Below are positions 14,241 to 15,316 of a stretch of 16,973 bases of DNA, piece by piece (the stretch's first letter is position 1; every line of letters begins with the position of its first letter). The notes under the pieces were generated by a model. The model was not told where the DNA came from. It made no database searches and saw nothing but the letters and a program-made list of their open reading frames with translations. The position numbers were made by a program, and so were the translations under genes. The DNA comes from a virus (taxonomy: Duplodnaviria; Heunggongvirae; Uroviricota; Caudoviricetes), in the IMG/VR virus record IMGVR_UViG_2529293240_000008, positions 1 to 16,973 of that record; one strand, written 5' to 3'.

Positions 14241-14269
14241 TTGCAGATGTGATGACATATGGTTATTAT
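14241..14269 (+). promoter_or_regulatory. Sigma70-like promoter of the tRNA cluster
   Basis: TTGCAG (14241-14246), 17-nt spacer, TATTAT (14264-14269), 9 bp upstream of the first tRNA. Confidence 0.55.
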
Positions 14270-14278
14270 TCTGCCTCC

Positions 14279-14355
14279 GGCCCTTTAGCTCAGTTGGTCA
14301 GAGCGAGCGACTCATAATCGCCAGGTCGCTGGTTCAAGTCCAGCAAGGGCCACCA
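14279..14355 (+). tRNA. tRNA with CAT anticodon (ileX/ileZ-like tRNA-Ile2; formally Met/Ile)
   Basis: Cloverleaf with 7-bp acceptor stem GGCCCTT/AAGGGCC, anticodon loop CTCATAA, T-loop TTCAAGT, encoded CCA. Confidence 0.85.
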
Positions 14356-14356
14356 A

Positions 14357-14433
14357 CCACCACTAGCTCATCCGGATAGAGCATCAACCTTCTAAGTTGA
14401 CGGTGCGAGGTTCGAGTCCTCGGTGGTGGGCCA
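14357..14433 (+). tRNA. tRNA-Arg (anticodon TCT)
   Basis: Acceptor stem CCACCAC/GTGGTGG, anticodon stem TCAAC/GTTGA with loop CTTCTAA, T-loop TTCGAGT, encoded CCA. Confidence 0.85.
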
Positions 14434-14435
14434 GC

Positions 14436-14511
14436 GCCGACTTAGCTCAGCAGGCAGAGCAACTGACTTGTAATCAGTAGGTCACCAGTTCGATTCCGGT
14501 AGTCGGCACCA
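14436..14511 (+). tRNA. tRNA-Thr (anticodon TGT)
   Basis: Acceptor stem GCCGACT/AGTCGGC, anticodon stem ACTGA/TCAGT with loop CTTGTAA, T-loop TTCGATT (one T-stem mismatch), encoded CCA. Confidence 0.75.
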
Positions 14512-14514
14512 TAT

Positions 14515-14589
14515 GCGGGCATCGTATAATGGCTATTACCTCAGCCTTCCAAGCTGATGATGCGGGTTCGATTCCCTTCGCCCGCTCCA
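14515..14589 (+). tRNA. tRNA-Gly (anticodon TCC)-like gene with mismatches in the T-stem and acceptor stem (possible pseudo-tRNA or att-site hybrid)
   Basis: Anticodon stem-loop TCAGC-CTTCCAA-GCTGA and 4-nt variable loop fit tRNA-Gly, but the 3' segment CCCTTCGCCCGC leaves a C-U mismatch in the T-stem and an A-C mismatch closing the acceptor stem. Confidence 0.55.
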
Positions 14590-14703
14590 TGACCTTTCTT
14601 AAAGTATTCCAACTTACTGAATCCTAAGGGATATGGCTTTAAGCCTCCTTGCAGAGTTACTTACTGTAACCCACTGTGTAACCCTCTCAGGGCATACAGA
14701 CAT

Positions 14704-15316
14704 ATGATTCAGCTATCCAGTAGTCACAAACTTCCAGCCGTCTCCTATCTCTACCAGCGTAACGGCGTCTACTACTTCCGTCTTCGGGTCAGACAATCAA
14801 ACAATGATAGAATGACCTCAGTATCATTACGGACCAAGGATAGACGCACCGCTATGGCTCACTCAAGGCACATCAAGGCAGCACTCAAGGCAATACACGC
14901 AGACAGACCCAACGCTACCTATGAGGAGATGAGGGAGCACCTTAAGGACATCGCTGAGTGTGAACTGTCTATGGGCCGTTCAGATCTCTTTGAGCCTGAC
15001 ATGAGGGATATCTACCGGGACCAATACGGAGAACTTGGTGAGAGCCTTACCGATGCTCTGGCTAGTGAGCCGCTAAGTATTGACCAGCATCGTTACATCA
15101 ATGAGGCCCTGAAGGTGCTAAAAGCCTGTATGAGGCGTATCGAAGCGGGAGATAGTCAGCCTCTGATAGATTACGTCGATCGTTTTAATGATATTGATCG
15201 GCAAGATGACCAAGCCCCTGTGTCCCTATCTGTTAGTGCTCCAGAAGTAAAACCAGAAGTTACGCCTAGCATTACCATAGCGAGCCTCTTTGAGCAATAT
15301 GAAGCGGAGAACTCTC
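14704..15316 (+). pseudogene. Putative tyrosine-integrase gene, N-terminal (arm-binding type) portion, 3' end truncated by IS2
   Basis: N-terminus ...LPAVSYLYQRNGVYYFRLRV... resembles the integrase arm-binding motif (compare lambda Int LPPNLYIRNNGYYCYR). The ORF runs into the IS2 terminus, so its last ~13 codons and stop (15357) are IS2-derived. Weak RBS. Confidence 0.4.

Follow-up and report, generated by a model that had tools for sequence, protein, structure and literature searches.

Islands and prophages that target tRNA genes, the Islander and TIGER islands among them, supply through their attP a replacement for the tRNA 3' end (Williams, 2002, as cited in PMC10111431). Off-target nested integration, with a fragment of transfer-messenger RNA (tmRNA) in attL, is described in PMC7192596 for SopE-phi of Salmonella Typhi. 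For the helper-embedded phage-inducible chromosomal islands (HE-PICIs), PMC10111431 (Tommasini, Mageeney and Williams, 2023) gives 14 sites in late protein-coding genes and integrases of one clade; these elements also possess AlpA as well as replication and late modules, and their attP has a doubled TGTATTGC motif. The locus analyzed here is the last of four tRNA genes in a lambdoid prophage, a tRNA-Gly gene with an aberrant 3' end that is followed by a fragment of an integrase gene. It lies in a stretch of 16,973 bp (hereafter, the window; IMG/VR record IMGVR_UViG_2529293240_000008) that constitutes the whole of contig AFOW01000009.1 of the draft assembly GCA_000217895.2, which a strain table in PMC6397287 lists as Shigella flexneri J1713. 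We consider it highly probable that an island specific for the chromosomal glyU gene inserted here at a secondary site, a prophage-borne copy of glyT, and that IS2, an insertion sequence (IS), later crippled the remnant.

A glyT body with a glyU 3' end

ARAGORN calls exactly four tRNA genes in the whole window, with spacers of 1, 2 and 3 nt, in agreement with a preliminary description of this DNA that had read four genes (CAT, TCT, TGT and TCC), 1-3 nt apart, downstream of the antiterminator gene Q. The cluster and the DNA that follows it up to the end of the contig are arranged thus:

14279..14355, + strand: tRNA with CAT anticodon, ileZ-like (ARAGORN; Rfam 70.5 bits)
14357..14433, + strand: tRNA-Arg (TCT), argN-like (ARAGORN; Rfam 56.4 bits; argN match in Stx2 phages)
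14436..14511, + strand: tRNA-Thr (TGT) (ARAGORN; Rfam 69.8 bits)
14515..14589, + strand: hybrid tRNA-Gly (TCC), which is attL (ARAGORN; Rfam 48.9 bits; alignments A1 and A6)
14590..14703, + strand: leader of the island left end, TGACCTTTCTTAAAG...ACTTACTGAATCCTAAGGGATA... (alignment with the DNA downstream of glyU in Escherichia coli 21AR0133)
14704..15316, + strand: 5' third of an integrase gene, 204 codons, tyrosine recombinase (92.8% amino acid identity to its homologue)
15317..16647, - strand: IS2, 1331 bp (NCBIfam IS2 TnpB, 727.6 bits, cut-off 597; TnpA, 275.8 bits, cut-off 229)
16648..16973, + strand: internal fragment of an IS3-type transposase orfB, to the contig end (rve domains; no integrase homology in alignment A2)

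The intact tRNA-Gly(UCC) of phage 689R5 is identical to the chromosomal glyT at 75 of 75 positions (alignment A6). Bases 1-62 of the hybrid (14515-14576) are those of the phage and chromosomal glyT, through GGGTTCGATTCCC (ending in GATTCCC), and from the diagnostic TTC at 14577-14579, where glyT has GCT, to the CCA end, the last 13 bases are the glyU-type TTCGCCCGCTCCA. The longest exact stretches common to glyT and glyU are GGGTTCGATTCCC and GCCCGCTCCA, of 13 and 10 bp, and across the entire GGGTTCGATTCCC-GCCCGCTCCA segment the two genes differ in three bases only, TTC in glyU versus GCT in glyT. The block of identity between the island and glyU is the 17-bp TCCCTTCGCCCGCTCCA, at 14573-14589.

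The grafting of a glyU 3' end onto a glyT body accounts for the defects in the stems of the hybrid tRNA. The pairs A7-U66 and C50-G64 are replaced by the mismatches A7·C66 and C50·U64, G49-C65 becomes the wobble pair G49·U65, and in the minimum free energy fold the acceptor stem is down to 6 bp and the T stem to 3 bp, from the 7 bp and 5 bp of the canonical cloverleaf. With the Rfam tRNA model, glyU reaches 71.6 bits and the intact phage homologue 64.9, but the hybrid only 48.9; because this last value exceeds the gathering score of 29, tRNA finders still call the gene. Judging from the predicted fold, the hybrid tRNA is likely to be functionally impaired. The preliminary description had suspected flaws in precisely these two stems, had suggested an alignment of the fourth tRNA with host glyT and had envisaged a second integrative element lodged in a phage-borne tRNA. 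The flaws are real and the interpretation is supported, in that ARAGORN calls a tRNA whose fold is damaged, and alignment A6 reveals a glyT body, a glyU 3' end and, beyond it, the left end of an island.

Past the tRNA 3' end, the window no longer resembles the phages with the same cluster, which run into the holin gene S. The ~730 bp after the tRNA are 92-93% identical to the DNA downstream of glyU in E. coli 21AR0133, and the segment 14546-15316 is 93% identical to a glyU locus annotated 'tRNA-Gly' and 'site-specific integrase'; the same leader adjoins glyU in Klebsiella, Pectobacterium, Citrobacter and other Enterobacterales. The integrase-like open reading frame (ORF; 14704-15357) begins 114 bp past the fourth tRNA, as had been noticed before, and continues for 13 codons into IS2 up to a stop at 15357. 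Its 204 integrase residues share 92.8% identity with residues 1-209 of the 544-aa integrase of the 21AR0133 glyU island and 83% with the counterpart in Klebsiella ATCC 13883. The homology ends at 15316, exactly at the IS2 junction (15316/15317), and the catalytic domain (PF00589, residues 335-523 of the 21AR0133 protein) is absent from the window's copy: the island in the window is a dead remnant, fixed in place and incapable of self-excision.

The relationship to a protein that contains PF00589 thus upholds the integrase assignment of the preliminary description, whereas the arm-binding N-terminus that it proposed is not established. The N-terminal region scores 25.9 bits with Pfam DUF6538, just under the cut-off of 27, and is similarly below threshold in the 21AR0133 protein; the AlphaFold model, with strands at 12-19, 22-30 and 37-44 and a helix at 47-65, is of low confidence (mean predicted local distance difference test score 56.6), and a Foldseek search of PDB with this model yields no match at E <= 0.001. 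In deposited phage genomes, the best tblastn match to the integrase shows 33% identity (Pseudomonas phages), and a protein database search with the 204-aa fragment returns mostly partial proteins on short contigs, with one S. flexneri match on an 835-bp contig.

A simple insertion of IS2 into the integrase gene was considered and rejected: IS2 is bordered by CTCTC (left) and GTGGC (right), without the 5-bp target-site duplication, and the right flank is IS3.

Nested insertions, empty sites and the glyU island family

The intact tRNA cluster is carried by phages 689R5, 606R7, PhiR47_1 and phi467, and in both phages that were inspected, 689R5 and phi467, an unbroken tRNA-Gly(UCC) is followed by holin S. 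Two complete nested insertions were identified, one in an IMG/VR contig (L006) and the other in the complete genome of E. coli EPSSH018 (L007). In both, the identical hybrid tRNA is followed by a complete island, an attR of the form TCCC-GCTGCCCGCTCCA and, past it, the holin and lysis genes of the phage. The EPSSH018 prophage is located at the ttcA (Rac) site, and its tRNAs are Ile(CAT)-Lys-Thr-Gly(hybrid), the homologue of the window's CAT tRNA being annotated as tRNA-Ile by PGAP. The attL core TCCCTTCGCCCGCTCCA (20138-20154) and the attR core TCCCGCTGCCCGCTCCA (26494-26510) enclose an island of 6.36 kb that is co-oriented with the late operon and encodes a 538-aa integrase, a DUF4145 protein and five further ORFs; beyond attR come holin, lysozyme, terminase, portal and capsid genes. 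In L006, the sequence beyond attR can be aligned position by position with the post-tRNA-Gly DNA of 689R5 and phi467, the holin included (alignment A4).

Past the EPSSH018 island, IS2 splits the holin gene and IS3 splits ydfR (L007 26903-28235 and 28659-29974), and the window shares with this genome the presence of IS2 and IS3 types next to the island remnant, in another arrangement. The IS3 fragment of the window is 100% identical to the L006 copy and 99.7% identical to that of L007.

The three-base difference between glyT and glyU within the core serves as a natural map of the strand exchange. In both complete cases, attL has the TTC of the island and attR retains the GCT of the phage; therefore, the exchange took place 5' of this triplet. 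To the left of the triplet, attP and the target agree over TCCC and no further (GGCTCCC in attR versus GATTCCC in the tRNA), and a comparison of these sequences suggests that the exchange occurred in or next to TCCC, just 5' of the TTC/GCT triplet.

Between themselves, the L006 and L007 integrases share 94.6% identity; the value drops to 54% against the N-terminal 204 residues encoded in the window and is ~74%, over the full length, against the 21AR0133 type. Furthermore, the phage DNA upstream of the tRNAs differs among the window, L006 and L007, in the Q genes and in the second tRNA, Arg or Lys. Given this integrase divergence and the different Q genes, at least two independent events have to be postulated, that is, the glyU island family entered the phage tRNA slot at least twice.

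The integrase of the L007 lineage is present in 209 complete E. coli genomes, with 208 of the matches starting inside glyU and a single one nested; the glyU copy in CAU16175 is 99.7% identical to the nested L007 copy. Chromosomal glyT, which has the same sequence as the phage site, is never occupied among 5,426 complete E. coli genomes. This gene lies in the thrU-tyrU-glyT-thrT cluster upstream of tuf, and insertions into it are presumably selected against, as they would damage the tRNA gene and split the cluster, the phage duplicate being expendable. The unoccupied state of the chromosomal gene is consistent with such selection against damage, and the phage tRNA copies can be viewed as tolerated landing pads.

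The family to which these elements belong, of ~6-7 kb, occupies glyU in hundreds of E. coli genomes as well as across the Enterobacterales. Among the integrase relatives in GTDB species representatives, ARAGORN finds tRNA-Gly(CCC) upstream in 15 of 21, and the core TCCCTTC[G/A]C[C/T]CGCTCCA is located just 5' of the integrase in 17 of the 21 loci; the genera include Klebsiella, Pectobacterium, Citrobacter, Enterobacter, Buttiauxella, Morganella, Proteus, Serratia and others. Islands with both ends visible measure 6.4 kb in E. coli 52148 and ~5.5 kb in Morganella and Citrobacter, and the first island of 21AR0133 (L005) reaches 7.3 kb, an IS5-family element included. The second core copy, attR, is present at glyU in L005, L015, L025 and L031. 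At its native site the tRNA is perfectly restored, through the 17-bp identity block in the E. coli lineage and through 23 bp, starting from the T-loop, in some others. The ORFs of the complete islands (L005, L006, L007, L015, L025 and L031) were scanned with Pfam, PHROGs, NCBIfam and PADLOC. Besides the integrase and the DUF4145 protein, the contents are variable: an Ant/Rha-type anti-repressor in some variants (phrog_10324, 2e-69), DUF6971, DUF4236, a resolvase and proteins without assignment. PADLOC gave no match to this cargo, NCBIfam only generic recombinase matches, and PDB sequence searches with the 328-aa and 163-aa island proteins gave no matches.

Three further observations on glyU loci are worth recording. 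In L005, copies of the 17-bp core at 127, 7469 and 17633 bound two different tandem islands, the first with a 544-aa and the second with a 650-aa integrase, before the ETT2 type III secretion cluster. On the attR side of the E. coli-lineage islands (L006 3097-3125, L007 26480-26510, L005 7455-7485), GTAGGC, GGC or CTAGGT replaces the TTCGAT of the T-loop, which is reminiscent of the damaged tRNA fragments at attR that PMC10111431 discusses; in Morganella and Citrobacter the T-loop on this side is intact and is preceded by CTTCGATAC repeats. In a Buttiauxella metagenome-assembled genome (L019, ~3808-3881), glyU combines a host-type 5' acceptor strand, GCGGGTG, with an island-supplied 3' strand, CGCCCGC, resulting in a U·G pair, and is probably a milder chimeric tRNA derived from cross-species island transfer.

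Origin of the junction

How could these findings be accommodated in a single scenario? A compact island of ~6-7 kb that encodes a tyrosine recombinase and normally targets the 3' end of chromosomal glyU, the gene for tRNA-Gly(CCC), would have recombined with the glyT-like tRNA-Gly(UCC) of a lambdoid prophage, between Q and the lysis genes. The island would have brought its own tRNA 3' end, as it does at glyU, which in this case was mismatched to the glyT-type body. The outcome would be a chimeric tRNA, attL, with two mismatches and a wobble pair, followed by the leader and the integrase gene, and subsequently IS2 and further IS-associated rearrangement would have removed everything past integrase codon 204. 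In this particular genome, integrase-mediated recombination is the most plausible maker of the junction. Given that 208 glyU copies stand against a single nested one in one lineage, the event is a rare but ordinary off-target insertion rather than the mark of an element specialized for phage tRNAs.

Several findings weigh against this explanation. Exact-pattern scans detected the hybrid in one IMG/VR contig (L006), in no GTDB representative and in no JGI metagenome contig; junction BLAST detected it in 1 of the 5,426 complete E. coli genomes (EPSSH018); and an IMG/VR scan for the attR-type pattern retrieved, again, L006 only. For the window's own island variant, with its 21AR0133-like integrase, no complete nested insertion was found anywhere. 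The 4-bp crossover window, TCCC, is shorter than the overlap of tyrosine recombinases, which is usually 6-8 bp; heterology might have been tolerated within the overlap, or the junction might have been resolved otherwise. Finally, neither attR nor a second core copy occurs in the window's 16,973 bases: IS2 and IS3 cut the island short, and the contig itself stops within IS3, so that of this genome's two junctions only the left one is visible. The direct repeat of the tRNA 3' segment that the preliminary description proposed to seek as the other att site is thus not in this contig; it was found in the two other genomes.

Among the alternatives, a chromosomal rearrangement fares best. Under this scenario, attL of a glyU-resident island recombined with the prophage tRNA-Gly, with inversion or deletion of the DNA between them, via the integrase or via the 13-bp GGGTTCGATTCCC microhomology, such that the left half of the prophage became joined to the left end of the island; the reciprocal junction would consist of the 5' half of glyU, GCTGCCCGCTCCA and the phage holin. 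The facts that only the attL-type junction is visible in the contig, that the S. flexneri genome is IS-rich and rearranged (IS66, IS600, IS2 and IS3 are all present within these 17 kb) and that the window's integrase is closest to those of islands at glyU are compatible with such an event. However, in two genomes the identical hybrid is the end of a precise insertion, with attR and the lysis genes at the opposite end. Furthermore, 13 bp is very short for RecA-dependent exchange, and attL and attB are not a normal substrate pair for integrative recombination by lambda-type integrases. We therefore prefer direct insertion of the glyU island into the prophage tRNA and regard the rearrangement as improbable.

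Could the island family, instead, be adapted to helper phages, deliberately using the phage tRNA-Gly and riding the late operon in the manner of the HE-PICIs? Such satellites exist in lambdoid prophages, according to PMC10111431; the islands described here point the same way as the late operon and lie between Q/pR' and the lysis genes, some variants possess the Ant/Rha-type anti-repressor, and two integrase lineages occupy the same phage site. Yet co-orientation follows automatically from the orientation of the tRNA, the glyU copies outnumber the nested one 208 to 1 in one lineage, and the replacement end in attP is of the glyU and not of the glyT type, so that the phage tRNA is damaged. All three nested cases reside in IS-ridden, probably defective prophages. 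As for the hallmarks of phage-inducible chromosomal islands, no AlpA, primase or replication, capsid or packaging genes were detected among the ORFs of the six complete islands, and the doubled TGTATTGC motif is absent from L007 with up to 3 mismatches allowed. By these genomic comparisons, the satellite reading is unsupported by any tested feature: where the preliminary description had left the choice between a satellite and an island, the evidence favors the island, and specialization for the phage tRNA seems very unlikely.

An assembly artefact, whereby the prophage tRNA cluster and a glyU island were spuriously joined through their shared tRNA-Gly sequence, might be suspected in a 2011-era draft, where the whole contig of 16,973 bp ends in repeats and where short identical stretches are common to glyT and glyU. 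These stretches, at 13 and 10 bp, are nevertheless too short to mislead an assembler; moreover, a complete E. coli chromosome has the same hybrid, as does an independent IMG/VR contig, and the contig at hand is reported in two samples, so that we attach hardly any probability to this explanation. Last, a decaying phage tRNA pseudogene with random base changes, next to a remnant of the phage's own integrase, an ORF that would have nothing to do with those changes, would fit the heavy IS-driven degradation of the prophage but is effectively refuted by alignment A6 and has next to no chance of being correct, given that the three changes reproduce the exact glyU 3' end, that the 730 bp of island DNA begin where the switch occurs, that in intact relatives the holin, not an integrase, comes after the tRNA cluster, and that no deposited phage integrase is more than 33% identical. 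The damaged-looking tRNA is best viewed as the scar of a collision between mobile elements and not as the result of random decay.

The phage setting and the relation to known systems

Upstream of the tRNAs, three more features were delineated:

13663..14079, + strand: phage antiterminator Q gene (Pfam PF06530, 181.5 bits)
14166..14190, + strand: terminator-like hairpin between Q and the tRNAs, AAACCCGCC-UCCG-GGCGGGUUU followed by U's (folding)
14240..14269, + strand: weak sigma-70-like match, TTTGCA-18-TATTAT (9 of 12 consensus positions)

The Q gene marks where the late region of a lambdoid prophage begins, with the tRNA cluster 200 bp downstream. The hairpin folds at -18.5 kcal/mol (z = -3.5) and was not picked up by the consensus scan; its position would suit a tR'-like role. 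The dedicated promoter that the preliminary description had assigned to the tRNA cluster had to be abandoned, the 9/12 match being at chance level (two such sites in the region versus 2.6 expected from shuffled sequence). Its reading of the first two tRNAs as the ileZ-argN slot of Stx phages proved accurate (88-90% identity to these genes of Stx2 phages), as did that of the third as Thr and the fourth as Gly. Over the whole four-tRNA block, identity to the clusters of the Escherichia phages 689R5, 606R7 and PhiR47_1 is ~92-93%, and the Thr-Gly pair matches its phi467 counterpart at 96.9% identity; in otherwise similar clusters of relatives, the second slot is held by either Arg(TCT) or Lys(TTT). 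Compared to the ileZ-argN-argO cluster of the 933W-type Stx phages, the slot between Q and the lysis genes is the same, whereas Thr(TGT) and Gly(TCC) take the third and fourth places, which is also the arrangement in 689R5, PhiR47_1 and phi467. In phi467 (L003, 1257-3159), stxA-stxB come first and the tRNA-Thr/tRNA-Gly pair lies downstream of them, whereas stx usually follows the tRNAs.

The left part of the prophage is broken up by a C-terminal fragment of an IS66 transposase at the contig start (18-335) and by an IS3-family, IS600-like element (2980-4178; ORFs of 100 and 272 aa; 99.7% identical to the L006 copies), between which lies an ORF for a GNAT acetyltransferase (1927-2412). Just after the IS66 fragment, two Rfam matches to group II introns (669-782, D1-D4-2, 81.8 bits; 1460-1535, domain V/VI, 57.8 bits), ~870 bp apart and with intervening ORFs that lack a reverse transcriptase domain, may represent an ORF-less or degenerate intron. 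Two tandem pairs of isrK and C4 antisense RNA (8293-8481 and 8949-9137; Rfam ~62 and ~80 bits in each), inside two consecutive Ash/Rha-type genes (7324-8898 and 8895-9755), look like a duplicated c4-ant immunity module of the P1/P7 style in the prophage early region.

With regard to broader implications, the nested insertions show that islands with tyrosine recombinases can land in the late-region slot that holds toxin genes, which bears on the question of how cargo arrives there. For annotation, the message is that tRNA-anchored island finders that bar nested calls or expect the cognate tRNA would miss such cases. A more ambitious idea is that phage-borne copies of host tRNAs serve as boarding sites through which chromosomal islands enter the 'moron' slot between Q and the lysis genes, gaining expression from the late promoter and, possibly, transduction; we consider this rather unlikely. 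If boarding were a regular route, it would amount to a tRNA-based counterpart of the helper-embedded satellites and to a way of loading cargo beside phage tRNA clusters, where stx genes sit. The Ant-type anti-repressor encoded by some variants might even trigger prophage induction.

How, then, does this locus compare with the systems outlined at the outset? Like the HE-PICIs, it involves a small integrase-bearing island in a lambdoid late region, co-oriented with late transcription, and some variants of the glyU island possess a Rha/Bro-type regulator; the difference is that the main site of the glyU family is chromosomal glyU and that the HE-PICI hallmarks were not found. With the tRNA-targeting islands it shares the standard mechanism, in that the integrase gene adjoins the tRNA gene and points away from it, the island provides the tRNA with its 3' part, and direct repeats of the tRNA 3' end bound the element; here, however, the target is a different isoacceptor (UCC), borne by a prophage, and the ill-fitting replacement end creates a chimera between isoacceptors. 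Our search of the literature, which was incomplete and whose silence is absence of evidence only, turned up no paper on an island integrated in a phage-encoded tRNA gene. SopE-phi would seem to be the closest conceptual precedent that we found: in both cases, an element that targets an RNA gene ended up inside another mobile element, and the junction keeps a fragment of the usual target. The present case differs in that the site is a tRNA paralogue of the normal target, the product is a full-length chimeric tRNA and two integrase lineages are involved, and it is, apparently, an undescribed variant of a known behavior and not a new kind of system.

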